Source of the DNA: Candidatus Woesearchaeota archaeon
GTDB taxonomy: Archaea; Nanobdellota; Nanobdellia; SCGC-AAA011-G17; JAGVZF01
Reading direction: 5' to 3'
Length of the DNA: 42,139 bases
NCBI GenBank assembly: GCA_016185565.1
Contig: JACPNH010000049.1
Span: 1-42,139, forward strand
Numbering within the stretch: the stretch's first letter is position 1; each line of letters starts with the position of its first letter. Both the position numbers and the translations under genes were made by a program. The notes under the pieces were generated by a model, which saw only the letters and a program-made list of their open reading frames with translations, was not told the DNA's origin and searched no databases. Shown here piece after piece: positions 5,666 through 31,808 of the stretch.

Positions 5666-6703
5666 ATGATTTCGAGAAGAAAATTTTTACAATTAACAGG
5701 TGCGACTGTTGTAAGCTTAGCAGCTAGTACTGCTTATACTGACTTGTTCCACCACCCTCTGCCATATCTTGATGAAAACAGAAGAACTGAAAAAAGAGTG
5801 TATGGAAGTAACCTCTATGAATTGCATCCAGCAAGAGCTGTTGCAGCATTAGAAAATGATGAAGAATCTGTAAAAATTTTTGATAGTTTAATAGACCTAC
5901 TAGAAGACAGCCTTAACTCTGCCTACGAATACAAGAGCAGAGAAGATTATCTTGTAAATACAGTATTAGAATACTCTAGAAGATTTTCCAGAAAGACTGC
6001 AACAAGAAAAGAGATTAATGTAATAAACAATGGAATACTTTTACCAAGAATTATTGGGTTAAGAGATATAATAAAACAATTAACACAATTTGCATTCTAT
6101 AGTCTAGAAGGCAGGCATGATACATATCTTGGAATAGGAAATGAGAGATTTGCGATTCCTGAATCTTATTTCCCTACTCTAAAAAGCTACGAATCAAAGA
6201 CTAAGGCCCTAAGAATATCTAGATCTTCAGAAGACAATGCTAAAAGACTTGTAGCCAATACAATCTATAATTTATCAGCAAACATAAAACATATCATAGA
6301 TGTTGCATCGGAAGAGAATGTACTATTAAACATACTGCTTGGTATAGCAACACTAGAATCTCTTGGAAACCAGTATAGCGTAGGAGTCGTTGGTGAAGTT
6401 GGAATGTTCCAGATAAGGCCTGATGTTTCCGAACTTGTGGCAAGAAAATATTCAGATAAATTTCAATTATCTTCACCACAGGAAGCACTAGAAAACATAG
6501 TAAGATATCCAGATCTAAATGCAAGGTTTGCAGCCATCTTGTTAAATGAGTGCAAGGTTGATTATCCAGAAATAGCACTAGCCTACCACAAAGGCCTCAC
6601 TAAGTTCAAATCATTAGATGAAGAAAGTCGAAGGAACCATTGGTATGTGGAAAAATTTTGTAAAGTCTATAATGTGCTGGAAGAAAGAGCATACCTATCA
6701 TAA
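5666..6703 (+). CDS. Tat-signal secreted lytic transglycosylase (SLT domain)
   Basis: MISRRKFLQLTGATVVSLAAS matches the twin-arginine consensus S-R-R-x-F-L. The C-terminal part has GIATLESLGN (catalytic Glu-Ser), GEVGMFQIRP and ALAYHKG, which are the three SLT motifs. Confidence 0.75.
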   Translation: MISRRKFLQLTGATVVSLAASTAYTDLFHHPLPYLDENRRTEKRVYGSNLYELHPARAVAALENDEESVKIFDSLIDLLEDSLNSAYEYKSREDYLVNTVLEYSRRFSRKTATRKEINVINNGILLPRIIGLRDIIKQLTQFAFYSLEGRHDTYLGIGNERFAIPESYFPTLKSYESKTKALRISRSSEDNAKRLVANTIYNLSANIKHIIDVASEENVLLNILLGIATLESLGNQYSVGVVGEVGMFQIRPDVSELVARKYSDKFQLSSPQEALENIVRYPDLNARFAAILLNECKVDYPEIALAYHKGLTKFKSLDEESRRNHWYVEKFCKVYNVLEERAYLS

Positions 6704-6819: not shown

Positions 6820-8272
6820 ATGGATTTAAAAGAGATTAAAGAGGGCTTGACCTTTGATGATGTGTTATTAGTCCCTAAAAAAAGCCCTGTGGTATCAAGA
6901 AAAGAAATAAGCGTAGAAACAATGCTTACAGAAAAGATAAAACTAAACATACCTATAGTTTCTGCAAATATGGACACTGTAACAGAAGCAAACATGGCTA
7001 TAGCAATTGCAAGACAGGGCGGTATTGGAATTATCCACAGATTTTTACCAATAGAGAAGCAAGTAGAAGAAGTTTTAAAAGTAAAACGCTCTGAATCTTT
7101 TATTATAGAAGAGCCTGTAACAATAAACCAAAATAAAACACTGAAAGATGCCAAACTTCTAATGAACACTTATGATGTTGGTGGAATTATAGTTGTAGAT
7201 GACAACAACAATATTGCAGGTATTTTGACCACTCGAGACACTTTATTCCAAGAAAATTTAAGGTTAAAAGTAAGCGAGGTGATGACAAAAAAAGAAAGCC
7301 TTATCACAGCACCTTTTGGAATAACTATGGATGAGGCTAAAAAGGTATTAAGAGAAAATAGAATTGAGAAATTGCCCTTGCTTGATGGGGATGGAAAGCT
7401 CCGAGGATTAATTACAACTAAAGACATAACAAAAAAAGAAAAATACCCAAATGCAAGCAAAGATATTAAGGGAAGGCTTCTTGTAGGGGCTGCAATTGGT
7501 GTTAAAGACGATTATGTAGAAAGAGCAACTGCATTATTAAGAGTTGGTTGTGACGTTTTAGTTGTTGACATTGCTCATGGACATAGTGATACTGCAATAA
7601 AAGCAATAAAAGAAATCCGCAAGAACCTTGGAACAGTCCAAGTAATTGGAGGAAATGTAGCAACAGGCGAGGGAACTAAAGATTTGATTAAGGCTGGCGT
7701 GGATGCAGTCAAAGTAGGGGTGGGTCCCTGGTGCCGTCTGTTCAACTCGGATAGTCACAGGGGCAGGAGTTCCTCAATTAACGGCAATAATGGAATGTGC
7801 TAAAATTGCTAGTAAAGAAAATATTCCAATAATTGCTGATGGTGGTATAAGAAATTCTGGCGATATTACAAAGGCTTTAGCATCTGGAGCATCTTCAGTA
7901 ATGATTGGCAGCTTGCTTGCTGGAACAGAGGAAAGTCCTGGTGCAATAATAATGAGACAAGGAAAAAGATACAAGATTTATAGAGGAATGGCATCATTTG
8001 AAGCTAACTTAAAAAGAAAACAAAAACAAAATAATAACTTTGAAATTGACACTGATTTGTTAGACATGACACCAGAAGGCGTAGAGAGTTTGGTTGCTTA
8101 TAAGGGATACACATCGGAAGTCATTACACAATTAATGAATGGTTTGAAATCCGGAGTTTCATATTGTGGATCAAGAAACATTAAAGAACTGCAAAAAAAT
8201 GCAGAATTCATTAAGATGAGTTTAGCTGGGTTAAGAGAAAGTTTTCCACATGATGTTGATGTTCTTAAATGA
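6820..8272 (+). pseudogene. guaB: IMP dehydrogenase with CBS pair, interrupted by a 1-nt frameshift at about 7726-7729
   Basis: ORF 6820-7803 reads LTFDDVLLVP...SANMDTVTE...GIGIIHR...CBS...VVDIAHGHS...VKVGVGP and then goes out of frame. The frame of ORF 7790-8272 is open from 7718 and reads [27 protein letters not shown]...[11 protein letters not shown]...GSLLAG. Deleting one base in the ggtCCCTggt context restores VGVGPGAVCSTR, the catalytic Cys loop. Confidence 0.85.
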
Positions 8273-8300: not shown

Positions 8301-9335
8301 TTATGTCTTATAAATTTCCGTATCAGAATGAAAGGCATACCAAGCAAACCAAAATGCCTTAACAACTTGTAACTCTTGTAGTTTGTTATTACTACTATTG
8401 TCATTTAAGTCATATTCAATATCTCCAGATACCAATTTTCCATTTTTTAAAATAAATTCTTTATCATCGCGATAAAAAATCCTTGCATCGTCTATGCTTT
8501 CATCATAGACTATCAACAAATTCTTTCCATTGAAATTGTCGTTAATTATTTTTTCTCTTGCTATATCGCCCTTTAGATAAGCCTTGAATTTATTATTCAC
8601 TTCGATGCCATAAATTCTTGTCTTTGGGTGGTATGTTGAATCTCTAGTGCTTATTGGAAATAAAATTTCAGCACTTGATTCATAGGTTCCATATGGATAT
8701 GTATCATAATCTCTTACAAACCCCGTGTCCCTTGAAAGCACCTTTGAATTGGGGAAGCTTTTTTTCCAATCCTGCCATGAAGTTATTGTCAATGGCAGTA
8801 TCTCAAGTTTTTGTTCTGCTAATTCTCCAATAATTGCTGTGCCATCCAACTGGCTCCATAGAGTATTCGTGAGTCTGTCGTACATTACCAAATCAGAATT
8901 ATACAATTTTCCCGAAACTCCAAATGTTGTTTCTTGGCCATTAACAACCCTTTTGAAAACAATGCCACTTCCGCATAACGGGCAGAATGTGACTGCTACA
9001 GGCACATTTCCGATTTTATCATTTACAATCTCGTGCCAATTCAGGATTTGCTGTGGGTATGCGCGGGCATCTTTGTTGAATTCGACTCCAAAAACAACTT
9101 CATTGTCATCAAGAAATTTTTCTGCTTCTTGAACAGAAACAAATTTTGGCTTGTCTATGCTAGGGATCGCATCTCTCGGCAGCACATTTATTACATTTTC
9201 TAAAGGAACTATGTGCTTAAATCCATCTGTAACTATAATACTATTCTCTGATTTTAGATTTTCTTTATTTTTATTGGTATTGCAGCCAGAGATCAGCAAT
9301 ATTGCAAAAATCCCTAAAATAAATAAGATTCTCAT
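8301..9335 (-). CDS. DUF3179-family lipoprotein
   Basis: Signal peptide with lipobox LLISGC. Contains RDAIPSIDKPKF...ARAYPQQILNWHEIVND...VAVTFCPLCGSGIVF...FGVSGKLYNSDLVMYD...TLWSQ, the DUF3179 signature. Confidence 0.8.
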   Translation of the reverse strand: MRILFILGIFAILLISGCNTNKNKENLKSENSIIVTDGFKHIVPLENVINVLPRDAIPSIDKPKFVSVQEAEKFLDDNEVVFGVEFNKDARAYPQQILNWHEIVNDKIGNVPVAVTFCPLCGSGIVFKRVVNGQETTFGVSGKLYNSDLVMYDRLTNTLWSQLDGTAIIGELAEQKLEILPLTITSWQDWKKSFPNSKVLSRDTGFVRDYDTYPYGTYESSAEILFPISTRDSTYHPKTRIYGIEVNNKFKAYLKGDIAREKIINDNFNGKNLLIVYDESIDDARIFYRDDKEFILKNGKLVSGDIEYDLNDNSSNNKLQELQVVKAFWFAWYAFHSDTEIYKT

Positions 9336-9460: not shown

Positions 9461-9479
9461 TTTTACAATATTTGTAAAA
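9461..9479. promoter_or_regulatory. Palindromic operator candidate TTTTACAA-TAT-TTGTAAAA
   Basis: Perfect 8-3-8 inverted repeat located 7 nt downstream of the TATA box and 24 nt upstream of the ATG at 9503. Its 17-nt core TTTACAATATTTGTAAA is identical to the sequence at 13789-13805. Confidence 0.55.
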
Positions 9480-9502
9480 CTTTAATATTTTAATATTTAA
9501 AA

Positions 9503-10141
9503 ATGAAACATATTGTTATTGCTTTAGTGAGCGATAATCTTGATCCTATCTTTCTAGGGCTAAAAGAGTTCCTTACAGAAAGAATTATACTTATAACCAG
9601 TTCTAAGGACTACAAGATTGCAGAAAAAGCAAAGGGGGAACTTGAGAAATTCAAGATTGACGTGCAGATTAGGGAAATAAATGATAACTTGTGGGAGAAT
9701 ATATTTAAGATAATATCACAGATAAAAAACCAAGAAGGTGGACCTGAAAAATTGATATTGAATGTTGCTTCTGGGAAGGACCCATTAAAATGCGCTGCTA
9801 TATCAGCAGCTTTCGTTAATGGAATAAAGGCTTTTGATGTCGATGAAAATAAGCCAATGCTGCTTCCTATTTTGAAATTCTCTTATTATAATATCTTGAC
9901 TGACAAAAAAATGAAAATACTGCAATTGCTTTCAGAACCAAATTGTTGCAAATCACTAGAGGAAATTAGCAACAAGACAAAGATGAGCCTTCCCTTAATT
10001 AGCTACCATATTAACGGCACAAAAAAATCAGAAGGTTTAAAGCAACTTGGATTGGTGGATAGAGAAGAAAAGGGCAGTAGGGTTGAAATAAAGTTGACAA
10101 CTCTAGGAAGATTACTGCTTAATGGGTATATATCAAGTTAA
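9503..10141 (+). CDS. Transcriptional regulator with an N-terminal Rossmann-like (CARF/Csa3-like) domain and a C-terminal ArsR-type winged helix
   Basis: The C-terminal part ILQLLSEPNCCKSLEEISNKTKMSLPLISYHINGT...LKQLGLVDREEKGSRVEIKLTTLGR is an ArsR/wHTH pattern. The N-terminal part HIVIALVS...RIILITSS...LILNVASGKDPLKCAAISAAF resembles the beta-strand/GxK pattern of Csa3-type ligand-binding domains. The N-terminal call is tentative. Confidence 0.55.
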   Translation: MKHIVIALVSDNLDPIFLGLKEFLTERIILITSSKDYKIAEKAKGELEKFKIDVQIREINDNLWENIFKIISQIKNQEGGPEKLILNVASGKDPLKCAAISAAFVNGIKAFDVDENKPMLLPILKFSYYNILTDKKMKILQLLSEPNCCKSLEEISNKTKMSLPLISYHINGTKKSEGLKQLGLVDREEKGSRVEIKLTTLGRLLLNGYISS

Positions 10142-10152
10142 ACTACACAAAG

Positions 10153-11115
10153 CTAACCTAGAGTTTTCTTTCTCCTCAAAAATCTGACTATTAGAATAAT
10201 TAAAACCAACAAAACAATAAATCCGATAATATTATACAAGAATAGATTTTTTGTCAAATTTCTTTGCAGGCTATAAAAGTATTCAGTAGTCTTTAAGAAA
10301 TCAAAGGCATTGATGATGTAAGTTCCTCTATACAATATCATTAATGCCCCTGCAGCAATTATTAATATGCCAGCAATAAGATTAGTTGAATGTACCCCAA
10401 AATTCCCAATCTTAAATTCTTTTCCACGTAATAGTTTCGAATTCGTAAAATTGTATTTATCCCAGAAAAATGAAAGCAAAAACAATGGCACAAAAACCCC
10501 TATGGAATACGCAAACATAAGCAATCCAGCTTTAATGTAGTTTCCAAGGACTGAGGCTATAGTCAATATTCCTGCTAAAATAGGGCCTGCACAAACATTC
10601 CACCCAAGCCCAAAAAATATTCCATACAAATAAATTCCAGAAACATCGTGCTTAAATTTTTTGTTTAGTTTTAAGAAACTAAAACCCTTCCCTAGTATAG
10701 TCAGCAATCCGAATAGAACCAAAAAAATTCCTGCTATCAAAGCTAAGTTTGAATTTTCATATTGAAATTGAGCTAGAGTATTTCCTAATTTTGCTGCTAT
10801 TAACCCAAGTAATACAAAAATGGTTGTAAATCCCAAAAAGAATATAAATGTCATCTTTGTTATTTCTTTTTTTTCTTTAAATGTATAAGAGAAAAATGCT
10901 GGTATTGAAACATAACTGCATGGGCTTAGTATAGCCAATAAGCCTGCTAGAAATGCTATTAAAAAACTTAAGCTCCCTAGAAATTGCTTGGCGCTTTCCT
11001 TTTCATACTGCTGGCCTGCTATTATTGCTGGTGGCAAATGAGAGCTAGCACCTACATAATTTATGAAACTCAGAAAAAATAAAATTGCAAGTAAATAAAT
11101 AAAAATTTTTCTCAT
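10153..11115 (-). CDS. ccdA: CcdA/DsbD-family thiol:disulfide electron-transfer membrane protein (copy 1)
   Basis: Polytopic membrane protein with LAILSPCSYVSIPAFF and GLGWNVCAGPILAGIL, the two conserved Cys-containing helices of the DsbD_2/CcdA family. Confidence 0.8.
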   Translation of the reverse strand: MRKIFIYLLAILFFLSFINYVGASSHLPPAIIAGQQYEKESAKQFLGSLSFLIAFLAGLLAILSPCSYVSIPAFFSYTFKEKKEITKMTFIFFLGFTTIFVLLGLIAAKLGNTLAQFQYENSNLALIAGIFLVLFGLLTILGKGFSFLKLNKKFKHDVSGIYLYGIFFGLGWNVCAGPILAGILTIASVLGNYIKAGLLMFAYSIGVFVPLFLLSFFWDKYNFTNSKLLRGKEFKIGNFGVHSTNLIAGILIIAAGALMILYRGTYIINAFDFLKTTEYFYSLQRNLTKNLFLYNIIGFIVLLVLIILIVRFLRRKKTLG

Positions 11116-11130
11116 ATTTTTTAGCAGAGG

Positions 11131-11529
11131 TTAGTTTACTACCACTTTGCCTTTCATATTGCTATGGCCTTCACCGCATGGAACTGTGCACACAAAATTG
11201 AATGTTCCTTTTTGGTCTGCCACAAATTCTACAGTAACAGTTTCCCCAGGATTAATTACTTTGTTTATGTTATAACCAGCAAGTCCAAATCCGTGGGTTA
11301 CATCGATGCTGTGCATCTTTAATATTACACTGTCACCTTCATTTACAGTAATTGTATCTGGAGTGTATTGCCATCTTTTTGCTTCTATGTTAAAAACCTT
11401 AGTTTCTCCTGTTGGCGGCAATGGCGGGGGGCCTATTTTATCTTTTTTTTGTGTATTTTGGGTTGTGTTACTACATGCTGCTATAAATAAAACTGATAAA
11501 ATAAAAAATGCAATAAAATATTTCTTCAT
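11131..11529 (-). CDS. Stand-alone CuA-type cupredoxin lipoprotein (cytochrome oxidase subunit II-like domain)
   Basis: Lipobox FIAAC. The ligand pattern H-x34-C-x3-C-x3-H-x2-M (THGF...FVCTVPCGEGHSNM) matches the binuclear CuA site in identity and spacing. Confidence 0.8.
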   Translation of the reverse strand: MKKYFIAFFILSVLFIAACSNTTQNTQKKDKIGPPPLPPTGETKVFNIEAKRWQYTPDTITVNEGDSVILKMHSIDVTHGFGLAGYNINKVINPGETVTVEFVADQKGTFNFVCTVPCGEGHSNMKGKVVVN

Positions 11530-11530
11530 T

Positions 11531-12757
11531 TTAAGTCACCTCCTGATTAGGTTGTTGATTTGATTCCAGTTTAGGCTCTACAACTTTATTGGTATTCAAG
11601 TCTTTGTAAGGAACTTGTAATATATCTAGGTTTCTGAATATATAATAATTATCAGTTTCTATGCTACCTACTTGCGACCATGCTTCTTTTAAGGAACTAT
11701 ACACATCTGCCTCATTACTCATGATGATTGTTGGGGCCTTTGTTATTTTATATTTTGTTATTAATGCTTGGCCCTCTGGGCTGCTTACATCAATGGTCTT
11801 TTCATTTGACAAAAACACTCCAAAATTTAACAATATGGGCTTGTGCAATGAAACATTATAGCAAATGTTGCAACTTTTATCCGTTATATAGGTTAATTCA
11901 ACTAAGCCTCTGACAGAATTGGTTAACAAATCTTTATATGGCGGAGGAGTTTGTCTTACAATATAGCTACTGTCACTTTCTATGCTCCCAAATTGTTTCC
12001 AGTTTGCGATTATCTGATTATCGATATAAGCATCTAAGTCGGAAGAAAATATCATAGTGGGAAGTTTAGTAATCTTATATTTTGTAATAAGTTCCTCAGC
12101 CTGGGTAAATTCTAGAGTTTTTTCATCTGTCATTATGACACCAGCCCTTACTAATTGAGTAATCAACGAGCTTATGTCTGAACAATCCTTACATCCGGAA
12201 TCCTTGATATGAACTAGGCTTACTTTTCCAACTTCTTTGTTTAATACGAGGTCATAATAAACTGGCCTTATATCTTCAAAAACTAAGGTGTCTTCTTTTT
12301 TTATTAGCCCCATCTCTCCTGTTTTGTCTATCTCTCCTGTAACTAAAACTGTAGGTAGTTTAGTAATTTCATTTTTAGAAATCAAGGCCTTTGCCTCAGG
12401 ATCAGAAAATTCAAGTGTTCTTTCGCTAGTAACATCAACATTATTGTCTTTTATTGAATCTATAACCTGATTGAGATTAAAGCAATCCTTGCAATTAGAA
12501 TTTCTCAATATGGTCAGGCTTATTAATGCAGGTTTGCTTTTTTCCTTTGCTTCTGCAAGAGCTTTGGTATAGGACTTTTGTACTCCAACTATGATTATAA
12601 CATTTATTAAAAGTATTATGGCCAAAACAACGCTTAAAATCAATTGGTAGTTTAATTTTGATTTTTTGATTTTTATATTTGGCTGTTGCAATGATTCTTG
12701 CACACCAATAGATTTTTCCTCTTTTTGTTTTTCTTCTGATTCTTCTGTGTTTTCCAT
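11531..12757 (-). CDS. Membrane-anchored protein with three tandem thioredoxin-fold CxxC modules
   Basis: One N-terminal TM helix followed by three units of about 100 aa. Each unit has a CxxC (CKDC, CKDC, CNIC), then ...E(R/K)T(L/I)(E/D)...(S/T)..E...LI(S/T)K(N/Y)(E/K)ITK(L/A)PT, which looks like a cis-Pro loop. Confidence 0.7.
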   Translation of the reverse strand: MENTEESEEKQKEEKSIGVQESLQQPNIKIKKSKLNYQLILSVVLAIILLINVIIIVGVQKSYTKALAEAKEKSKPALISLTILRNSNCKDCFNLNQVIDSIKDNNVDVTSERTLEFSDPEAKALISKNEITKLPTVLVTGEIDKTGEMGLIKKEDTLVFEDIRPVYYDLVLNKEVGKVSLVHIKDSGCKDCSDISSLITQLVRAGVIMTDEKTLEFTQAEELITKYKITKLPTMIFSSDLDAYIDNQIIANWKQFGSIESDSSYIVRQTPPPYKDLLTNSVRGLVELTYITDKSCNICYNVSLHKPILLNFGVFLSNEKTIDVSSPEGQALITKYKITKAPTIIMSNEADVYSSLKEAWSQVGSIETDNYYIFRNLDILQVPYKDLNTNKVVEPKLESNQQPNQEVT

Positions 12758-12850
12758 GAAATCACTCTTTATTTTTTAGTATAATTATTTTAAAAAATCC
12801 CCCTTCAATAAAAGAAAAGAAAAATTGGTGTTTATATATTTTACTAACAG

Positions 12851-13066
12851 CTAACAACCGCCAACCATCTGTGGTAAGTTATTTACATCGTTCAATTCTG
12901 TAGCAATTGAATTTCCTGTAGATACACTCGTTGATTTTGAGTTTGTGCCAAGACTTATTTTTCCTGCGCTCATATCTGTTTTCAATTGCACTAGCTGAAA
13001 TGCCTGCACTGCAGAAATAACTACTAGTATGGCTAACACAGCTATAACCACAATATTTTTATTCAT
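12851..13066 (-). CDS. Small membrane-anchored protein ending in LPQMVGGC
   Basis: A 71-aa protein with an N-terminal hydrophobic helix, a Ser/Thr-rich linker and an extreme C-terminus NDVNNLPQMVGGC. Both termini are paralogous to those of the upstream gene. Only 3 nt separate it from that gene. Confidence 0.6.
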   Translation of the reverse strand: MNKNIVVIAVLAILVVISAVQAFQLVQLKTDMSAGKISLGTNSKSTSVSTGNSIATELNDVNNLPQMVGGC

Positions 13067-13069
13067 TTT

Positions 13070-13774
13070 TTAACAACCTCCTACCATTTCAGGTAAATCT
13101 GCTGAATTAATATCGCCTACACTACTTTTTTGGCCTGATTTTAATTTTTGGATTAAAGCTCGATCATTCAAAACATCTGGGCTTAATTCAAGCCCATTTT
13201 GATTTGCTAATACTGCTTTTTCAACCATGTTCTTTGGGTAGTATATAGACTTCCATTTTGTTAATTCCCAAAGTATTTGCTCATCACTCATTTCAGGATG
13301 GTTTTTGACTAAATATTTTGCCAATCCTTTAAAACTTGCAGCATGACTGCAACCACATAAACTTCTTCCTTGAGAGTCAATTACAGCAGGTGCACTACAG
13401 CAGAATTCACAGCTGATTTTTGTTCCAATATTAATATATCTTGACTTTTCTTCTGAAGTTAAACTGCTATCTTGCACAACTCTATCTAAGGCGGCTAGTT
13501 TACTTAAACTTTTTACAGGATCGTCATAACTAATCCCCAATTCATTACCATAAACTTCAGGGGTTCCTTTTGGGATTAATTTATTAATTATCTCATTTAC
13601 ATCTGCATTAGCACTTAATTTTATTGAACTTGTTGCTGCTCCAGTTGTGAATAATTGATTTCCTGTTAAGGCAGAGATTTGTATTTGATTAAATATAATA
13701 ACAACTGCAACGATGCCAATAAAAACATATCCTGTGTACTCAGAAATTTTTTCTTTTTTATTAGTCGGTTCCAT
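13070..13774 (-). CDS. Membrane-anchored Cys-rich protein ending in LPEMVGGC
   Basis: N-terminal TM helix. The central domain reads ISCEFCCSAPAVIDSQGRSLCGCSHAASFKGLAKYL...MSDEQILWELTKW, which is loosely reminiscent of PCYCGC-motif proteins. The C-terminus is GDINSADLPEMVGGC. Confidence 0.65.
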   Translation of the reverse strand: MEPTNKKEKISEYTGYVFIGIVAVVIIFNQIQISALTGNQLFTTGAATSSIKLSANADVNEIINKLIPKGTPEVYGNELGISYDDPVKSLSKLAALDRVVQDSSLTSEEKSRYINIGTKISCEFCCSAPAVIDSQGRSLCGCSHAASFKGLAKYLVKNHPEMSDEQILWELTKWKSIYYPKNMVEKAVLANQNGLELSPDVLNDRALIQKLKSGQKSSVGDINSADLPEMVGGC

Positions 13775-13788
13775 TTAAACATCCATGC

Positions 13789-13805
13789 TTTACAATATTT
13801 GTAAA
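13789..13805. promoter_or_regulatory. Palindromic operator candidate TTTACAA-TAT-TTGTAAA
   Basis: Identical 17-mer to the one at 9462-9478. It lies 8 nt downstream (minus strand) of the TATA-like ATTTATATAC at 13814-13823 and 14 nt upstream of the ATG at 13774. Confidence 0.55.
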
Positions 13806-13997
13806 TCTTACCTGTATATAAATCTTTTCTTTAATCTTTAATTTGGCACTGACTTTTTAGTATCGATTTTTCGATTTAATTATTACTACCTAGTTAAATC
13901 GTTAATTATAAAAACTCATTATTAAAATAAACTTTAACATTTTAATAACATAATTCATAATTTGTATCAATACCAAAATAAAGTGTGGAGCGTAAAA

Positions 13998-14072
13998 ATG
14001 GGAAAAAAATCCAAAAGGAAATCTAGGGCATCAAGCGGTTGTGGTTGTGGAGAAGATTGCACTTGTTGCTAG
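13998..14072 (+). CDS. Unannotated 24-aa Cys-rich, metallothionein-like peptide
   Basis: The sequence is MGKKSKRKSRASSGCGCGEDCTCC. A GGAG lies 8 nt upstream of the ATG. It is the first gene of the plus-strand redox operon and is below the ORF-track size cutoff. Confidence 0.4.
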   Translation: MGKKSKRKSRASSGCGCGEDCTCC

Positions 14073-14090
14073 CAATGTCTAGGTAGAAAA

Positions 14091-14330
14091 ATGGCAAAAT
14101 CTGTTAAAATATACACTACAAGAACATGCCCGTACTGCCACATGGCAAAGGAGTTTTTCAAGGCAAACGATGTAAAGTACACCGAGATAGATGTTGGCAG
14201 CGACAGGAAGGCAGCTGAAGAGATGATCAAGAGGTCTGGACAGATGGGGGTTCCAGTGATTGATGTAGACGGAACAATAATTGTTGGCTATAACAAGGAA
14301 GCGTTGAAGAAGGCACTGTCCATAAAATAA
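14091..14330 (+). CDS. Glutaredoxin/NrdH-like small redoxin (CPYC)
   Basis: A 79-aa protein with IYTTRTCPYCHMAKEF...GVPVIDVDGTIIVGYN, the classic glutaredoxin fold pattern. Confidence 0.85.
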   Translation: MAKSVKIYTTRTCPYCHMAKEFFKANDVKYTEIDVGSDRKAAEEMIKRSGQMGVPVIDVDGTIIVGYNKEALKKALSIK

Positions 14331-14355
14331 TCTTAAATTTTAATTAAAACAAAAC

Positions 14356-14598
14356 ATGAAAAAGAGGTATCACATCTTTGTCTGCGGAAGATGCGGTTAT
14401 AGGGCTCATTCTAAAGTTACTTGCCCAACATGCCATATCCATCTTGAAGAGCAATGCCATAAATGCTTGAATGCTAAAGGAAATTGTATCTGCAGAATAC
14501 ATGGTCCTTTCAGGGCTGGAAAGCCGATAAAAATAGCCGTGTCAAAAAAATCAAAAGCCAGGTCAAGGAAGACAAGAAAGTCCAAGAAAAGAAGGTGA
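14356..14598 (+). CDS. Zinc-ribbon protein with a highly basic tail
   Basis: Contains CGRCG...CPTCH...CHKC...CIC, followed by the tail KKSKARSRKTRKSKKRR. Confidence 0.55.
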   Translation: MKKRYHIFVCGRCGYRAHSKVTCPTCHIHLEEQCHKCLNAKGNCICRIHGPFRAGKPIKIAVSKKSKARSRKTRKSKKRR

Positions 14599-14602
14599 CT
14601 TT

Positions 14603-15517
14603 ATGTATGATATTATAATCATTGGCGGAGGCCCTAGTGCACTGGCTGCTGCTGTTTATGCTGCTAGGCAGAAGGTTGATTTTATTGTAATAGCTGAAAA
14701 TGTTGGAGGCCAGATTCTTTGGAGTTCTGACATAGAGAATTATCTTGGATTTAAGTCAATAACTGGAATGGAACTGGTGCCAAGATTTATTGAACAAATT
14801 GAATATAATAAAGTGCAAATTAAAGATGAAAAAGTTTCTTCTATAGACAAAAAAGGCAATACCTTTATTGTAAAAACAGACAAAAATAACCCATATGAAA
14901 GTAAAACAATTTTAATAGCCTCTGGAAAAAAGCCTCGAAAATTAAATGTGTCAGGAGAGGATGAATTTCTAGGAAGGGGTGTTTCTTATTGCGCATTATG
15001 CGATGCCGCATTATTTCCAGATAAAAATGTAGCTGTTGTTGGTGGAGGAAATGCAGCCATGGATGCTGCATTATTAATACAAAAATATGCGAAGAAAGTA
15101 TACATAATTTCTATAAACGCTAGCTTAATGGGTGAGCCTTATATGCTAGATGAAATAAGGAAAAGCAACAAAATTGAAGTGATTACAAATGCAAAAACAA
15201 CCATTATTTCTGGCAGTAAATTTGTCACAGGAATTTCAATAGAAGTAGTAAATGAAAAGAAAACAATTCCAGTAGAGGGTGTTTTTGTAGAAATTGGATC
15301 TATTCCTAGTGTTGAATTCGACAACTTGACCAAAAAAAACCGTTATAATGAAATTATGATATATGGCAATGAAACTATGTCGAATATGACTTCTGTTTCT
15401 GGAATTTTTGCAGCAGGCGATGTTACAGATGTTCAAGAAAAACAAGTTATAGTTGCAGCTGGCGAAGGTGTTAAAGCAATTCTAGGAATTTTTAAATATC
15501 TTCAAACTTTGAAATAA
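14603..15517 (+). CDS. trxB: Thioredoxin-disulfide reductase
   Basis: Contains IIGGGPSALAAAVYAAR (FAD), the redox-active CALCDA, VVGGGNAAMDAA (NADPH) and GIFAAGDV. Confidence 0.85.
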   Translation: MYDIIIIGGGPSALAAAVYAARQKVDFIVIAENVGGQILWSSDIENYLGFKSITGMELVPRFIEQIEYNKVQIKDEKVSSIDKKGNTFIVKTDKNNPYESKTILIASGKKPRKLNVSGEDEFLGRGVSYCALCDAALFPDKNVAVVGGGNAAMDAALLIQKYAKKVYIISINASLMGEPYMLDEIRKSNKIEVITNAKTTIISGSKFVTGISIEVVNEKKTIPVEGVFVEIGSIPSVEFDNLTKKNRYNEIMIYGNETMSNMTSVSGIFAAGDVTDVQEKQVIVAAGEGVKAILGIFKYLQTLK

Positions 15518-15582
15518 AAAGAAAAAAGAATTTTAACTATAAAAACAAAATTTATAAAGAGCAAATAAACTATAGTTAATAT

Positions 15583-16125
15583 ATGAAAAAATATTTTTTA
15601 ATACTGTTAATAGTAAGCATAACAATAATAGCTTCCTGCAAAAATCAGGCAAACATTAATAACCAAATAAATACAAATGCAGCAAATGAGTTAGAGGAAT
15701 TCGGCATTTCAATAGGGAATAAAGCCCCGGATTTTGAGCTAAGAGGTTATGACGGGAAAACTATTAGTCTAAGTGTCTATAAAGGAAGCCCAGTAGTTTT
15801 AGATTTTTTTGCTTCTTGGTGCCCTTATTGCAATAATGAAATGCCAAGAATAAACAAAATAGTAAATGAAAAATACCCTAATGTAAAAATAATTGCAATC
15901 AATGACGCGTTTGAAGATGCAAAAACAATAGAAGCCTGGGCAAAAGAAAAAGGATTTGATTTTCCATTGTTAGTAGATCCAGAAGGAAAAGTAAAGGCTT
16001 TATATGCAATTCGTGGACATCCTACCACTATTTACATAGATAAGGAAGGCATTATAAAAGACAAAAGATACGGCTCTGGGGCTAATGCAGTTATTGAAGA
16101 AAACTTAAAGAAGATTACAACTTAA
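15583..16125 (+). CDS. TlpA/ResA-like extracytoplasmic thioredoxin lipoprotein
   Basis: Lipobox IIASC. Contains APDFEL...GKTISLSVYKGSPVVLDFFASWCPYCNNEMP...GHPTTIYID. Confidence 0.8.
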   Translation: MKKYFLILLIVSITIIASCKNQANINNQINTNAANELEEFGISIGNKAPDFELRGYDGKTISLSVYKGSPVVLDFFASWCPYCNNEMPRINKIVNEKYPNVKIIAINDAFEDAKTIEAWAKEKGFDFPLLVDPEGKVKALYAIRGHPTTIYIDKEGIIKDKRYGSGANAVIEENLKKITT

Positions 16126-16160
16126 ATTTAAAATAATTTTAAAAGACAAAAGGAGGGACA

Positions 16161-16733
16161 ATGAAAAAATATTTTTTAATTGGACTTGTTTTTTTGCTAT
16201 TAATCATTTCTAGCTGCAAGAATGCAAATCAAGAAACGAGCAATTCAGATTTAAATGAAAATAAAATAGCAATTGAAAATCAAAACACTATGCAAGAAAA
16301 TCAAAAACAAATAAATACAAACAGCCAAAAAACCAACATTATTACTCAAGAATCATCTTTTTCTGCATCTGGTAATATATTAGCGGGAACTAAAACCCTT
16401 TTTATTGATTTCAACAAAGAGGATTATGACAAAGCGCTTTCAGAAAACAGAGTAATTTTCCTTTATTTTTATGCAAACTGGTGCCCTATTTGCAGGGAAG
16501 AAATAAAACAAACTTATGCTGCATTTAATGGGCTTGGAAATGAAAATGTAGTTGGTTTTCAAGTAAACTATAAAGACTCTAACACAGACAAGAATGAAAT
16601 AGAATTGGCAAAGCAATTCGGAATAACATACCAGCATACTAAAGTAATAATAAAAAATGGAGAAAGAATACTAAAAGATGGAAACTCCTGGAATAAAGAA
16701 ACGTATATTAATGAAATAAACAAATATGGTTGA
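16161..16733 (+). CDS. Thioredoxin-like lipoprotein (WCPIC)
   Basis: Lipobox IISSC, a low-complexity N/Q linker, then IFLYFYANWCPICREE. Its first 20 nt are identical to those of the TlpA-like gene at 15583. Confidence 0.7.
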   Translation: MKKYFLIGLVFLLLIISSCKNANQETSNSDLNENKIAIENQNTMQENQKQINTNSQKTNIITQESSFSASGNILAGTKTLFIDFNKEDYDKALSENRVIFLYFYANWCPICREEIKQTYAAFNGLGNENVVGFQVNYKDSNTDKNEIELAKQFGITYQHTKVIIKNGERILKDGNSWNKETYINEINKYG

Positions 16734-17443
16734 ATAAAATGGTGGAAGTCACAATAATTGCAGCTTTTCTTGCGGGTATTGTTTCTTTTTTAAGTCCTTG
16801 CATTCTGCCTTTAATACCAGGATTTTTAGCTTATTTGGCTGGTGTAAATCCAGAAGATAGTTCTGCAAAAGCTAGAACAAAGATGTTCTTAAACAGCTTA
16901 ATTTTTGTATTAGGGTTTTCAGCAGTTTTTTCTTTGCTCGGAGTTTTATTAAATAGCATTCTTGAAAAGAACTCTTATACAATTCAATTATGGCTGAGTA
17001 GAGTTGGTGGTGTTATAATTATTTTATTTGGCTTTTATGTTTTAAAATTAATAAAAATCCCATTCCTTGAGAAGGAACATAAGTTGCAAATAAAGGGATT
17101 AAAGCCAAGCTATTTCGCTTCATTTTTATTTGGGGCAGCTTTTGCCGTCGGCTGGACTCCTTGCGTGGGTGCTGTTCTAGGAGCTATTTTAACTTTAGCA
17201 TTAACAAACCCTGGGCAAAGTTTTTATTTACTTTTAAGTTATGCAATCGGTTTGGGTATTCCTTTTTTAATTGTAGGGATATTTTCAACTAAAGCTCTAA
17301 CCTTAATAAAGAAAAATGAAAAATTCTTTAAATACTTTAATGTATTTGTAGGCATATTTTTAATAACCCTTGGAGTATTGGTTTTTACACAACAATTAAG
17401 TAGGGTTGCGAGTTTGGGTGTTGTTAGCAGATTGGTGCCATAA
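16730..17443 (+). CDS. ccdA: CcdA-family thiol:disulfide electron-transfer membrane protein (copy 2)
   Basis: Contains FLSPCILPLIPGFLAYLAG and GWTPCVGAVLGAIL and has six or more hydrophobic helices. It overlaps the upstream gene by 4 nt. Confidence 0.85.
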   Translation: MNKMVEVTIIAAFLAGIVSFLSPCILPLIPGFLAYLAGVNPEDSSAKARTKMFLNSLIFVLGFSAVFSLLGVLLNSILEKNSYTIQLWLSRVGGVIIILFGFYVLKLIKIPFLEKEHKLQIKGLKPSYFASFLFGAAFAVGWTPCVGAVLGAILTLALTNPGQSFYLLLSYAIGLGIPFLIVGIFSTKALTLIKKNEKFFKYFNVFVGIFLITLGVLVFTQQLSRVASLGVVSRLVP

Positions 17444-23119: not shown

Positions 23120-23212
23120 GCAAGAGTTATTAACTACCGAAAAGTTTATAAATTAGTTTATAACTCTAAAATGATAATATTAAACCTTAAAATTTTAAGG
23201 GGGGGTCAAAAA

Positions 23213-24550
23213 ATGAATAAAATACTGAAAATAGTGAACGTGTTTTTTGTGGCATTATTGCTATTAGTGCCAAGTTATGTTAAAAATGTAAGATCAGCAG
23301 AATCTCCTGACTATTTTATAGAAAGGATTGATGTTGATGGCACAACTGTTTTTGAGGGCGATCTTAATAGAGTTAGTCGGGACACGGTGAATCTTGAAAG
23401 AGGAGAGACATTGACAGTTGAAGTATGGGTGAGGGGTGTTGAAGATATTGGAGATAATAATTTAAGCGGTGATACTGTAGATAATGTAAAAGTAAAAGCC
23501 TTTATGAGCGGTGGTGAATTTGATGATGTCGAAGACACATCTGATGTATTCACTGTAAGAGAAGGTGTTCTACATAAAAAAGTATTAAGATTAGACATAC
23601 CAGAAGACTTTGATATTGAAGACGAAACAACTACTTTAAATATTGAGGTATTTGATGGCGACAATAGTAGAGAAGAAGATCTTGAATTGAATATCGTAGA
23701 GAAGAGACATGCCTTAAACATATTAGATGTAATACTTAATCCTGGCTTGACAGTTGAATCTGGCAAGACGGTATTTGGAACCGTTAGGGTAGAAAATCTA
23801 GGCGAAAAAACAGAAAGAGATGTAAAAATAGTTATGTCGATTCCAGAACTAGGATTAAGCACTAGAACATTTATAGATGAACTTGTAAATGAAGAAGACG
23901 CAGAGAATGACGATGAAGATGACAAAGTAAGCGCTTCTAGCGATGAATTATTCTTGAAGATACCAGAAGACACTAAAGAAGGAACATACACCTTAAAGTT
24001 TGATGTTGTATACAACAGAGGACATTCAAGTTTAACCAAGACATATGCCTTGAATGTTAAAGGTATTGCTCCAACTCTTGTAAAGGAACAGGCAATTGCA
24101 AGCGTTGATACCACATTACAAACTGTTGAGGCAGGAAAAGGTGCTATATTTAAGGTTATGGTGACAAATCTTGGAACTAAGACGATGACTTTCAGTACAG
24201 ATGTAGCAGGTGTTACAAGCTGGGGCAATTCAAGAGTTGATCCGGCATCAGTAACAGTTGCTCCCGACCAAACTGGAGAAATGTTTGTATTTATAGGAGC
24301 AAATGAAAATGCACAAGCAGCAGATAATGCAGTAACCTTAACTGTAAAATCTGGAGAGAATATAGTAAAACAAGTTCCAGTAACAGTTAAAGTAAGTGGA
24401 GCACAAACACAAGATACATTCGGCAGCTTAAGAAGAGGCCTAGAAATTGGGTTCATAGTATTATTAATAGTACTAGTAATCCTTGGCTTGATACTTGCTG
24501 CTAGAAAACTTGGTGGCAAAGAGGAAGAAGAAGGAAAAACTTACTACTAA
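23213..24550 (+). CDS. S-layer-like or surface protein with CARDB-like domains and a C-terminal TM anchor
   Basis: The G-rich SD (AAGGGGGGG) 6 nt upstream favours the ATG at 23213 (MNKILKIV..., a signal peptide) over the track start at 23171. Contains VRVENLGEKTERDVKIVMSIPELG, acidic stretches, the C-terminal helix IGFIVLLIVLVILGLILAA and a charged tail. It sits directly upstream of EF-1alpha. Confidence 0.6.
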   Translation: MNKILKIVNVFFVALLLLVPSYVKNVRSAESPDYFIERIDVDGTTVFEGDLNRVSRDTVNLERGETLTVEVWVRGVEDIGDNNLSGDTVDNVKVKAFMSGGEFDDVEDTSDVFTVREGVLHKKVLRLDIPEDFDIEDETTTLNIEVFDGDNSREEDLELNIVEKRHALNILDVILNPGLTVESGKTVFGTVRVENLGEKTERDVKIVMSIPELGLSTRTFIDELVNEEDAENDDEDDKVSASSDELFLKIPEDTKEGTYTLKFDVVYNRGHSSLTKTYALNVKGIAPTLVKEQAIASVDTTLQTVEAGKGAIFKVMVTNLGTKTMTFSTDVAGVTSWGNSRVDPASVTVAPDQTGEMFVFIGANENAQAADNAVTLTVKSGENIVKQVPVTVKVSGAQTQDTFGSLRRGLEIGFIVLLIVLVILGLILAARKLGGKEEEEGKTYY

Positions 24551-30545: not shown

Positions 30546-31808
30546 ATGAAAAAACCAAATCATATTATTTTGATAATAGTGCTTTTGGTGCTATTTATTT
30601 TAACTTCTGAATTAATAGAATTTGTAAGGAATAATGTGTTTTATTTTTTGATTCCGTTACTGCTTTCTCTATCTTTAATATTCTGGAAAAAGAAATCAAA
30701 ACTCGATACCTTACTCACAACATTTATATTGATTGTTTTTTTAGCTGCAAGATTAATTTTTAGCAATATAGACCAACCAACATTGGTGCTAAGAACTTCT
30801 GCAATATTATCTTTTTTCCTGTTAAATTTGGTTTTGCTCATAGGACCATGGTCTAGGTTTTCTGATAAAATTTTAAGGCTATATTATTTCAGACGCCGCC
30901 TTGGGGTGAGCGCTTTTTTCTTAGGATGGCTACATTTTACAATTGTGATTTCAAAACTCTTCAATTTAAACATTAAAAATGCTCTTTCATTTGCATTCAC
31001 ATTTTATGGATTTACAGCATTTTTTATAATGTTCTGGATGGCCCTTACTTCTTGGGATTATGTGCAGAAGAAATTCAAGCCATCTTGGTGGAATATACTG
31101 CATACACTGCTATTAATTGCTTACATAGCATTTGCTTACTTATTTTATACATTACAAAAAACATTAAACAATACTTTATTAAAATACCATTTGTATGCTA
31201 TTGCAATATTTGTAGTCTTTTGGATTATGGTTGCTCCTTATTCCATAGTTAAGAAGATAATTAAAACAAACGTGTTTGGGTGGAAACAGTTACATGTTTT
31301 AGTGTATATTGCATATTTCTCTTTGATAGTACATGTTGTATTGCAAGGCACATTAAAGGGTATATTTCTTAATGCAGTATTTTACGGATTAATAGCATTT
31401 GTGGTAGGAAGTCATGCAGTAGGTTGGCTGAAAAAAATAAATGAAGACAATAATATAAATAAAAAAATAAAGTCTATAAACAAGAAGATAAATGAAGATG
31501 AGAAGACATTTATAGGAGTTGCTTATGAAAATGAGTTCCAAGAAAGCATAGGTAAAAAGTTTTACATTAACAATAAGCCAATTGCAGTTTTCAAGCATCA
31601 AGGAAATTTTATAGCAATGTCTGATATTTGCGCACATCAGAAAGGGCCATTGCATAAGGGAAGAATAGTTTATGGGTATGTAGAATGCCCTTGGCATAAA
31701 TGGACATACAACATAAATGATGGATGTTCGCCAAAGCCGTATACAGATTGTGTGCCTTATTACAAAACCAAAGTAAAGGACAGTATAGTTTATGTTTCAA
31801 CAGATTAA
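30546..31808 (+). CDS. Polytopic membrane protein: ferric-reductase/MsrQ-like heme-b domain fused to a C-terminal Rieske [2Fe-2S] domain
   Basis: Contains FRRRLGVSAFFLGWLHF and WWNILHTLLLIAY, a His-bearing helix pattern. The C-terminal part CAHQKGPLHKGRIVYGYVECPWH gives C-x-H-x16-C-x2-H. Confidence 0.65.
   Translation: MKKPNHIILIIVLLVLFILTSELIEFVRNNVFYFLIPLLLSLSLIFWKKKSKLDTLLTTFILIVFLAARLIFSNIDQPTLVLRTSAILSFFLLNLVLLIGPWSRFSDKILRLYYFRRRLGVSAFFLGWLHFTIVISKLFNLNIKNALSFAFTFYGFTAFFIMFWMALTSWDYVQKKFKPSWWNILHTLLLIAYIAFAYLFYTLQKTLNNTLLKYHLYAIAIFVVFWIMVAPYSIVKKIIKTNVFGWKQLHVLVYIAYFSLIVHVVLQGTLKGIFLNAVFYGLIAFVVGSHAVGWLKKINEDNNINKKIKSINKKINEDEKTFIGVAYENEFQESIGKKFYINNKPIAVFKHQGNFIAMSDICAHQKGPLHKGRIVYGYVECPWHKWTYNINDGCSPKPYTDCVPYYKTKVKDSIVYVSTD

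Follow-up and report, generated by a model that had tools for sequence, protein, structure and literature searches.

Positions 10,153 to 17,443 of the DNA analysed here hold a dense run of genes for cysteine-rich, redox and copper proteins. The question raised by this locus is whether these genes form one system and, if so, what that system might do outside the cytoplasm of its archaeal host. The stretch as a whole, hereafter the window, is the complete 42,139-bp contig from a metagenome-assembled genome of Candidatus Woesearchaeota (HYX18 locus tags). It has a GC content of about 32% and encodes the archaeal markers aEF-1alpha, a YGR210-type GTPase and an HFX_2341-like regulator. DPANN archaea and bacteria of the candidate phyla radiation (CPR) are ultra-small, mostly uncultured and host-attached; their surface chemistry is central to this lifestyle and almost wholly uncharacterised. 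A first-pass annotation had described the locus as one twelve-gene extracytoplasmic thiol/copper redox island in two divergent operons. We find two units instead: a conserved five-gene cassette on the minus strand and an ordinary, unlinked thioredoxin-reductase neighbour on the plus strand.

This division emerged from a sample of 80 related loci (up to ±10 kb; 1.14 Mb in total, about the size of a DPANN genome), whose open reading frames (ORFs) were called and searched with each window protein. The homologue of a 234-residue protein, MV234, served as anchor, and the 41 loci that extend 3 kb or more upstream and 5 kb or more downstream of it form the well-flanked subset. Homologues of the small protein mini-MVGGC were detected in 60 of the 80 loci, those of a triple thioredoxin-fold protein (triple-Trx) in 43, those of the conduit CcdA in about 30 (50 by clustering) and those of a cupredoxin in 28. 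For the plus strand the counts were 4 for a thioredoxin reductase (TrxR)-like protein, 2 each for a glutaredoxin (Grx) and a TlpA-like lipoprotein, 1 each for a zinc ribbon and a thioredoxin (Trx) lipoprotein, and 0 for a 24-aa peptide. These counts define the cassette as MV234, mini-MVGGC, triple-Trx, cupredoxin and CcdA. It was found across DPANN archaea and on one CPR-like bacterial contig.

Among the well-flanked loci CcdA and/or triple-Trx are present in 36 and the cupredoxin in 17. A tail-bearing ORF of less than 135 aa directly follows MV234 in all 41, and thus the MVGGC pair is the invariant core of the cassette. The notion of a single twelve-gene unit could not be upheld, since plus-strand genes occur near the anchor in at most 4 of the 80 loci and lack the cassette operator described below, no copy of which lies near the Grx start in the window. 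Hence, the plus-strand operon was ruled out as part of the system. Co-conservation of the unrecognised genes with the redox genes holds for the MVGGC pair, which accompanies triple-Trx, CcdA and often the cupredoxin, but neither for the zinc ribbon (1/80) nor for the peptide (0/80).

A conserved pair of cysteine-tail proteins

MV234 (13070-13774, minus strand) is a type II membrane protein with the C-terminal tail LPEMVGGC-COOH. The mini-MVGGC protein (12851-13066, minus strand; 71 aa) starts with a hydrophobic helix (...SAVQAFQL) and ends with LPQMVGGC-COOH. More than 170 relatives of MV234, none of them named, were retrieved from a word index; an exhaustive profile search yielded 322 clusters (50% identity), of which 249 had E ≤ 1e-10. 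When GTDB species, one genome each, were scanned with a pattern, 239 matches were obtained, distributed over Woese-, Pace-, Aenigmat- and Micrarchaeota, Iainarchaeota/Diapherotrites and Nanohaloarchaea and over a handful of bins with odd labels.

The core motif of MV234, C122-E-F-C125-C126...C140-G-C142-S-H144, is located in an all-alpha domain. In its general form, C-x-[FYW]-C-C...C-x-C-x-H, it is kept in 153 of 155 diverse representatives, and the C-terminal Cys is kept in 139 of the 155. The tail consensus among these representatives is [M(83)/Q(29)]-V-G-[G/D/S/A/E]-C-COOH, mostly preceded by LPx, and LPxMVGGC stands at the C-terminal end of 115 of 120 homologues. Within the 80 related loci 162 of 10,942 ORFs carry the tail, which is common to both MVGGC proteins far beyond chance. 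Exactly one transmembrane (TM) segment is predicted for 234 of 244 standard-length members, with 2.39 Lys/Arg residues on its N-terminal flank versus 0.93 on the C-terminal one. This charge bias argues for an N-in/C-out orientation and consequently for an extracytoplasmic location of the Cys-rich domain and the tail.

No family in Pfam or NCBIfam was found for MV234, for mini-MVGGC or for 28 relatives of MV234. The AlphaFold2 (AF2) model of MV234 is all-alpha with a predicted local distance difference test (pLDDT) score of 86 (core above 90, tail 64-78), and a Foldseek search of the PDB with this model returned no match (best E = 0.39, TM-score below 0.2). The best hit of the sequence profile against PDB chains had E = 1.5. 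A literature search for the MVGGC motif, and for CcdA in DPANN, gave nothing relevant. Judged from the model, MV234 represents a genuine orphan family whose predicted fold has no counterpart among solved structures. The suspicion of an undescribed system was well founded in this respect: the MVGGC genes are real, belong to no known family and are conserved together with redox genes. Interpretations of the Cys motif as an Fe-S site (CCG or CDGSH-like) or a haem c site (CxxCH) were set aside, given the mismatch of the motifs and the apparent Sec-type export without a Tat signal.

The mini protein aligns with both ends of MV234, namely the TM region and the tail. Its layout is an anchor, a linker of 25-45 residues made up of Ser, Gly and Ala (Ser/Thr/Gly-rich in the window copy) and the tail. 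From these alignments it appears best described as a domain-less paralogue of MV234. The CxxCC domain of the family also occurs in fusions. At least three times it is joined to a four-TM (4TM) GCPxCG membrane domain (P0266, P0254, L063), and in P0230 it is joined to an FKBP prolyl isomerase.

The 4TM proteins form an orphan family of their own without a Pfam match; they have the motif G-x-G-C-P-x-C-G within the membrane and end in a Cys on the cytoplasmic side (L072:3862-4371, L062:9366-9815 and L081:11628-12176; fusion L063:15774-16982). Their layout recalls MerC/MerT-type transporters of thiophilic metals or a second transmembrane thiol conduit.

One may ask whether the tail is a functional thiol arm at all, or rather a C-terminal sorting or lipidation signal for covalent anchoring or processing. 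The LPx before the tail is superficially LPXTG-like, the tail is common to otherwise different proteins, and an M48/M56 protease is often encoded nearby. This protease, however, has a BlaI repressor as its partner, in the manner of BlaR1 systems, and no sortase-like enzyme is among the conserved neighbours in the 80 loci. Moreover, the MVGGC proteins are N-terminally anchored already and stop at the Cys, without the downstream TM helix or basic tail that sortase, archaeosortase and rhombosortase signals require. A sorting signal is therefore extremely improbable.

Redox partners and the copper link

The third gene of the cassette (11531-12757, minus strand) encodes a membrane-anchored protein of 408 aa with the active-site motifs CKDC, CKDC and CNIC, each with a cis-Pro loop. 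It has three weak thioredoxin profile matches, and the three CxxC motifs and three cis-Pro residues are kept in 42-43 of its 43 homologues. The AF2 model (pLDDT 88) was matched by Foldseek to protein disulfide isomerase (PDI), ERp57, ERp44 and ERdj5, to the protein disulfide oxidoreductases (PDO) of Pyrococcus (P. furiosus 1a8l, probability 1.00), Aquifex and Aeropyrum, and to the N-terminal domain of AhpF; the PDI/PDO matches had E = 1e-6 to 1e-4. With the PDO profile TIGR02187 the protein scored 29.8 bits (cut-off 185). The model thus points to a membrane-anchored, extracytoplasmic triple thioredoxin that is PDI/PDO-like in architecture, with a sequence outside the PDO family. The idea that two-domain homologues from CPR bacteria always lie within MV cassettes was abandoned, since two of the three examined sat elsewhere.

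CcdA1 (10153-11115, minus strand) is a DsbD_TM-type thiol-disulfide conduit (PF02683, 54.3 bits, cut-off 27.1) with one Cys per half in the motifs LSPCSYV and NVCAGP. In Micrarchaeota-type loci the place of triple-Trx is taken by a secreted Trx-like protein with a CGHC motif, and CcdA comes next. Apparent CcdA-CcdA tandems, considered as a split CcdA, turned out to be this pair. A Trx-fold protein and a CcdA conduit therefore recur with the MV pair in the Micrarchaeota-type lineage, too. In addition, a VKOR-type Trx-like protein, mostly with a single Cys (C-x-x-T), is inserted in 12 of the 41 well-flanked loci.

These partners invite a metal-independent explanation based on oxidative folding or thiol repair. 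MV234 would then be a new oxidoreductase (a sulfhydryl oxidase, an isomerase or a sulfenate/sulfoxide reductase) whose C-terminal Cys shuttles or resolves as in Erv2 tails, MsrA, 2-Cys peroxiredoxins and ribonucleotide reductase R1. The PDI-like protein and CcdA would recycle it, and copper genes would adjoin only since copper is one of several thiol stresses. The PDI/PDO-like partner, the occurrence of CcdA or a Trx-fold protein in 36 of 41 loci, the VKOR-type insert, the FKBP fusion, the even total of 5+1 cysteines, the replacement of the tail Met by Gln and the precedent of CcdA-Etrx-MsrAB (PMC3914529) are all consistent with this explanation. It does not account easily for the strong co-location of copper markers or for the domain-less mini protein, which is hard to explain as an enzyme, and the predicted fold of MV234 is unlike Erv, Ero1, DsbB, VKOR, Msr and Prx. 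Furthermore, no obvious oxidant sink, for example quinones, is known from most DPANN archaea. We consider a purely metal-independent role unlikely.

The cupredoxin (11131-11529, minus strand; 132 aa) is a stand-alone lipoprotein (PF13473, 50.4 bits, cut-off 27). Its predicted metal site follows the exact CuA pattern H...C-x3-C-x3-H-x2-M, with the ligands HGF...C-TVP-C-GEG-H-SN-M (HGF...CTVPCGEGHSNM). It scores 49 bits with the CoxB profile TIGR02866 (cut-off 147.7) and 71 and 51 bits with NosZ profiles (cut-off 625), and it carries a lipoprotein signal only, without the TM hairpin of CoxB. No gene for haem-copper oxidase subunit I or NosZ is present on the contig. The protein is thus no conventional oxidase subunit II or NosZ, as had been supposed, and the reported lack of subunit I in the window is correct.

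The first-pass annotation had seen in this protein the client of a CuA-biogenesis relay leading from TrxR over a small redoxin and CcdA to TlpA, a reading that would cast the MVGGC proteins as accessory copper chaperones. Bradyrhizobium TlpA reportedly reduces the CuA cysteines of CoxB, and ScoI. The full CuA ligand set and the adjacent TlpA-like, CcdA and TrxR genes fit such a relay. An obligate CuA client, however, is not compatible with a cupredoxin present in 17 of 41 loci and with a two-Cys CuA motif kept in only 13 of 26 neighbouring cupredoxins, i.e. in half of them. Moreover, co-conservation with the cassette is lacking for TlpA, TrxR and Grx, homologues of Sco and PCuAC were not encountered, and the cassette appears to be under repressor control like a stress regulon. 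A dedicated CuA relay is therefore improbable.

Nevertheless, copper genes are frequent companions of the cassette. A CPC-type P1B ATPase (CopA) is encoded within 7 kb of the anchor in 14 of the 80 loci, and in several of them CopA, a TM-anchored MarR (TM-MarR), MV234 and mini-MVGGC are co-oriented neighbours. Counting cupredoxin, HMA protein and CopA as copper markers within 6 kb, at least one was found in 26 of the 41 well-flanked loci; an HMA-domain protein is present in 16.

The bacterial locus is instructive in this respect. Contig JBPNSS010000008.1 (GCA_054029995.1; 28% GC) is CPR-like, with genes for S2, EF-Ts, a Mur ligase and RelA, and carries a complete MV234/mini cassette (L081:5990-14626). 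The gene order is a type-1 cupredoxin, an MV234 homologue (CEFCCG...CGCAHA...LPSMVGGC), a mini protein (LPDMVGGC), a Trx-Trx-rhodanese fusion, a Trx-CcdA fusion and a 4TM GCxxCG protein, followed by CopA and CsoR. The presence of the cassette in a CPR-like bacterium indicates inter-domain transfer of the module and provides a concrete case of envelope functions being shared between domains.

The rhodanese fusion raises the question of sulfur. The GGC-COOH arm might covalently bear sulfane sulfur, polysulfide or persulfide, with MV234 loading or processing this cargo and Trx/CcdA releasing it reductively. The arm does resemble the Gly-flanked carrier Cys on the C-terminal arm of SoxY (PMC5336275), the C-x4-R loop of the rhodanese domain is intact, and the groundwater habitat is often sulfidic. 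But this bacterial homologue of the Trx partner is the only rhodanese fusion, Sox, Dsr, Sqr and Psr genes were not found in the neighbourhoods, the all-alpha MV234 differs from the beta-sandwich of SoxY, and the enriched genes are those for copper rather than sulfur. We rate a sulfur carrier as very improbable.

Further orphan envelope proteins with Cys/His motifs accompany the cassette in related loci (clusters c10, c11, c12, c5, c8 and c20; examples L070:3590-4138, L062:13611-13874, L079:11717-12241, L007:4903-5601, L068:11269-11736 and L032:3392-3607). These orphans comprise a GSMxACCxH membrane protein, an 87-aa D-x-C...H-x-x-HHP...C protein, a membrane protein starting with AHCPLCT, a C2H2 zinc finger-TM-His-rich ectodomain protein, a VKOR-type Trx-like domain mostly with C-x-x-T and a 71-aa GGGCG lipoprotein.

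The operator and a proposed mechanism

A 17-nt dyad, TTTACAATATTTGTAAA (TTACA-N5-TGTAA), is located at 13789-13805 between the TTTATATA TATA box and the start codon of MV234. A second, identical copy at 9462-9478 lies 24 nt upstream of the ATG of a winged helix-turn-helix (wHTH) gene (9503-10141, plus strand), in the same TATA-N9/10-operator layout. These two exact copies in the window compare with an expectation of 0.17 even when 2 mismatches are allowed. In the related loci the TACA-N5-TGTA dyad (extended form TTACA-N5-TGTAA) is found 13-175 nt upstream of the MV234 start in 27 of 78 cases, with a spacing of 5 nt in all 31 instances. About 1.06 sites would be expected from the locus-wide density (enrichment about 29-fold), and shuffles gave 4.7 loci for spacings 1-9 taken together. 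Further copies precede other cassette-associated operons in related loci. A third dyad in the window (TACA-N5-TGTA, 11344-11356, TACAGTAATTGTA) lies within the cupredoxin gene; it is probably a chance occurrence, but could be an internal operator.

BlaI, MecI and CopY bind TACA/TGTA dyads (PMC7253601), and a membrane-linked regulator is encoded in 30 of the 41 well-flanked loci. Woese-, Aenigmat- and Micrarchaeota-type loci encode, divergently to the cassette, a Penicillinase_R (BlaI/CopY-family) repressor (PF03965, 8e-15) and an M48/M56 HELxH membrane protease with a conserved C-x6-C. In Pace- and Iainarchaeota-type loci this pair is replaced by the TM-MarR, which has a conserved C-x4-C between its TM helices. 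The dyad is present in 16 of 27 BlaI-adjacent loci versus 1 of 23 MarR-adjacent ones. The conservation and layout of the operator suggest that the cassette is a repressor-controlled stress regulon, and the second copy extends its left boundary to about 9462. The wHTH protein combines an HFX_2341_N/Csa3_N-like (CARF/Csa3-like) Rossmann domain with a C-terminal winged helix (ArsR/HTH_24-like) and is a candidate regulator or co-regulated protein. Its gene was not found beside the cassette in the 80 related loci and may represent a lineage-specific regulator or member of the regulon.

From these data we tentatively favour the view that the unit comprises the minus-strand stretch 9462-13805 plus the wHTH gene at 9503 and is a stress-regulated extracytoplasmic thiol relay servicing novel cysteine-arm proteins in copper/thiol defence, not a dedicated CuA assembly line. 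CcdA1 would move reducing equivalents from the cytoplasm to the outside, presumably in this direction and plausibly from the adjacent Grx/TrxR pair, and would reduce the membrane-anchored triple-Trx. The latter in turn would keep MV234 and mini-MVGGC reduced, or recycle both. The terminal Cys of the arm may act as a mobile ligand or thiol that docks at the Cys5-His site of MV234, either in cis or, from the mini protein, in trans. There it might capture and hand over Cu(I) or resolve thiol damage at the cell surface, with the lipoprotein cupredoxin as a frequent yet optional copper partner. Repression would be mediated by the BlaI/CopY-type TTACA-N5-TGTAA operator; in most lineages the repressor would be paired with the HELxH protease or with a TM-MarR bearing a conserved extracytoplasmic Cys pair.

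Several points weigh against such a thiol/copper relay. Copper binding and redox activity of the cassette proteins are predicted from sequence and context, and both the fusion to FKBP and the PDI-like partner would suit a role purely in protein folding just as well. Gln takes the place of the tail Met in 29 of the 155 representatives, so Met is not an essential Cu ligand. No copper marker lies within 6 kb of the anchor in 15 of the 41 well-flanked loci, and the background of 1-2 CopA genes per 1.14 Mb, with which the CopA count is to be compared, is a rough estimate. On the regulatory side, the repressors are BlaI-type, only 4 of 35 contain the CxC copper site of CopY, and the operator spacing is N5 rather than the N2 of cop boxes. 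Finally, the 42,139-bp contig itself carries no CopA, HMA or BlaI gene.

A bolder proposal can be built on this thiol relay. MV234 and mini-MVGGC might constitute a new class of extracytoplasmic cysteine swinging-arm carriers, with an unseen fold around a Cys5-His centre, a slender, invariant [M/Q]VGGC-COOH arm and a second, domain-less tethered arm. Cu(I), sulfane sulfur or oxidising equivalents, bound covalently or by coordination, would be the cargo, moved among the Cys5-His centre, CcdA, the 4TM GCPxCG proteins and clients at the surface. Such a relay of thiols would follow a principle outside Dsb, Scs, Sox and Mer, spread by horizontal transfer between DPANN and CPR. We regard it as possible, though doubtful. 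If the arm is indeed a carrier or metal-handover device, it would represent a new mechanism in envelope thiol and copper homeostasis and would help to understand how exposed cysteines are protected in organisms with reduced genomes. What is defined in any case is a widespread regulated module: an operator, partners (CcdA, the PDI-like triple thioredoxin and copper genes) and two central proteins without known relatives.

Neighbouring genes and known systems

The plus-strand genes fall into two parts. The first (14091-15517) is a cytoplasmic reductant unit that is not co-conserved with the cassette. It consists of a YruB-type CPYC glutaredoxin (14091-14330; profile match), a basic zinc ribbon of 80 aa with four CxxC motifs (14356-14598) and the TrxR-like flavoprotein (14603-15517). 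No Pfam or NCBIfam family matches the zinc ribbon. A homologue search for it found only itself and a copy, 75% identical and with every Cys kept, in L001, the nearest relative (71% identity). The TrxR-like protein contains the redox motif CALC and scores 289 bits with TIGR01292, below the equivalog cut-off of 343.45. Its stretch aligned to HRRDGFR reads SINASLM and thus lacks HRRxxxR, which we take to be the motif for the 2'-phosphate of NADPH. The proposed step from NADPH to TrxR is hence not supported, and from its sequence the electron donor of this protein is uncertain. The TrxR-like protein, the YruB-type Grx and the zinc ribbon may form a non-NADPH system like the clostridial Cp34/Cp9 or ferredoxin-dependent types. 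The unit is a plausible electron source for CcdA in this genome.

The second part (15583-17443, plus strand) is a further, conventional reducing module of extracytoplasmic type and specific to this contig. It comprises a ResA/TlpA-like lipoprotein (15583-16125) with WCPYC and a lipobox, a WCPIC thioredoxin lipoprotein (16161-16733; profile match) and CcdA2 (16730-17443; PF02683, 61.8 bits, cut-off 27.1; LSPCILP and WTPCVGA). The first of these scores 101.8 bits with PF00578 (cut-off 26), 100 with the ResA profile NF002854 (cut-off 170) and 44.6 with the TlpA profile NF047696 (cut-off 230). The module is missing in L001 and in almost every other related locus, and L001 is the only locus in which the Grx-zinc ribbon-TrxR unit adjoins the cassette. 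Since L001 has the first part without the second, the plus-strand operon is itself composite.

The gene content described earlier can be confirmed in large part. All twelve ORFs exist with the coordinates and strands first assigned to them, but only eleven are credible genes. The domain calls for both CcdA proteins, the cupredoxin, Grx, the TlpA-like protein and the WCPIC thioredoxin were reproduced by profile search, the TrxR call falling short of the equivalog level. Gaps of -4 to 15 nt apply within sub-blocks, whereas the remaining junctions measure 18, 25, 35, 65 and 93 nt. Of at least four members said to have no family, both MVGGC proteins and the zinc ribbon indeed have none.

The fourth of these, the 24-aa Cys-rich ORF (MGKKSKRKSRASSGCGCGEDCTCC; 13998-14072, plus strand), is preceded by a plausible GGAG ribosome-binding site. 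It has no NCBI annotation, is absent from a collection of 15 billion proteins and is missing in L001, where the intergenic region is about 135 nt long. No comparable peptide was found in the related loci, and a six-frame search with a Cys-rich pattern was too permissive and gave only noise. The status of this ORF as a gene is thus unsupported.

Some other features of the window deserve mention. A DUF3179 lipoprotein with an FCPLCGSG motif (8301-9335, minus strand; 346 bits) is encoded two genes from CcdA1; it is a further extracytoplasmic CxxC protein and has no counterpart in the 80 loci. Bacterial-type lipoboxes (IAAC, IASC, ISSC and ISGC) are present on the proteins at 11131, 15583, 16161 and 8301, and a homologue of Lgt occurs in related DPANN loci (L018:4689-5432; PF01790, 3e-58). 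Together these sequences suggest bacterial-style lipoprotein acylation in these archaea. IMP dehydrogenase (6820-8272, plus strand) is encoded in two ORFs that overlap: 6820-7803 covers the N-terminal part and its CBS domains, 7790-8272 the C-terminal part. A frameshift, a sequencing error or a genuinely split gene could be the cause. At 30546-31808 (plus strand) a ferric-reductase-like transmembrane domain (PF01794) is joined, unusually, to a Rieske [2Fe-2S] domain at the C-terminus of the same protein. The protein at 5666-6703 (plus strand) has an SLT lytic transglycosylase domain, in this archaeon possibly aimed at the cell wall of a bacterial host or neighbour. A 402-aa ORF (23311-24519, minus strand) lies antisense to nearly the full length of a 459-aa ORF (23171-24550, plus strand) with weak FixG_C/NPCBM-associated Ig-like matches and is probably a composition artefact.

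In comparison with known systems, Scs appears to be the closest functional analogue of the cassette, without the cassette being a member of it. Scs consists of a DsbD-type conduit, ScsB, and a trimeric Trx-fold isomerase, ScsC, which binds Cu(I) and is linked to copper tolerance (PMC8900818, PMC5524982, PMC10907172, PMC3322552). In both cases a conduit would feed an extracytoplasmic, effectively trivalent Trx-fold isomerase, and there is a genetic link to copper. The conduit of the cassette, however, is a minimal CcdA rather than an ScsB with periplasmic domains, its three Trx folds reside in one polypeptide and are PDI/PDO-like rather than DsbA/DsbG-like, the two orphan cysteine-tail proteins have no Scs counterpart, and the hosts are archaea and CPR bacteria. 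The triple-Trx itself shares with PDO and PDI the tandem Trx folds, each with a CxxC. It has three domains instead of two (PDO) or the a-b-b'-a' arrangement (PDI), and it is predicted to be membrane-anchored and extracytoplasmic in contrast to cytoplasmic PDO.

In the CcdA-Etrx-MsrAB2 system of Streptococcus pneumoniae, CcdA and thioredoxin lipoproteins feed a surface client enzyme for stress resistance (PMC3914529). Single-membrane cells and two parallel CcdA modules, as in the window, are common to both; the presumed client in the cassette is unrelated to MsrAB, since MV234 is all-alpha, has a Cys5-His site and a terminal Cys arm and is accompanied by a domain-less paralogue. With the TlpA-ScoI/CoxB branch the window shares a TlpA/ResA-like thioredoxin and a CuA-type cupredoxin. 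The CoxB TM hairpin, subunit I, Sco and PCuAC are lacking, TlpA is not co-conserved and the cupredoxin is optional.

The arm of SoxY ends in the motif GGCGG. In SoxYZ the carrier cysteine is located at the very C-terminus on a flexible arm to be visited by partner proteins (PMC5336275), and the Gly-flanked terminal Cys arm is the only likeness to MV234, which is all-alpha, membrane-tethered and ends in GGC-COOH rather than GGCGG-COOH, with no SoxZ or other Sox genes in the 80 loci.

Regulation recalls BlaI/BlaR1 and CopY, in which a Penicillinase_R repressor, a membrane HELxH metalloprotease and a TACA/TGTA dyad over the promoter cooperate and some members control copper operons (PMC7253601, PMC5772342). 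Related loci likewise pair a Penicillinase_R repressor with a HELxH protease and have the dyad at the promoter. The spacing is N5 instead of N2, the repressors are mostly devoid of CxC, the promoter is of the archaeal TATA type, and the contig has no repressor gene. Unlike BlaR1, the protease of the related loci has no penicillin-binding sensor domain and contains a conserved C-x6-C loop instead. The system as a whole appears to be of the CcdA-fed envelope thiol/copper type and is new in its orphan cysteine-tail proteins.

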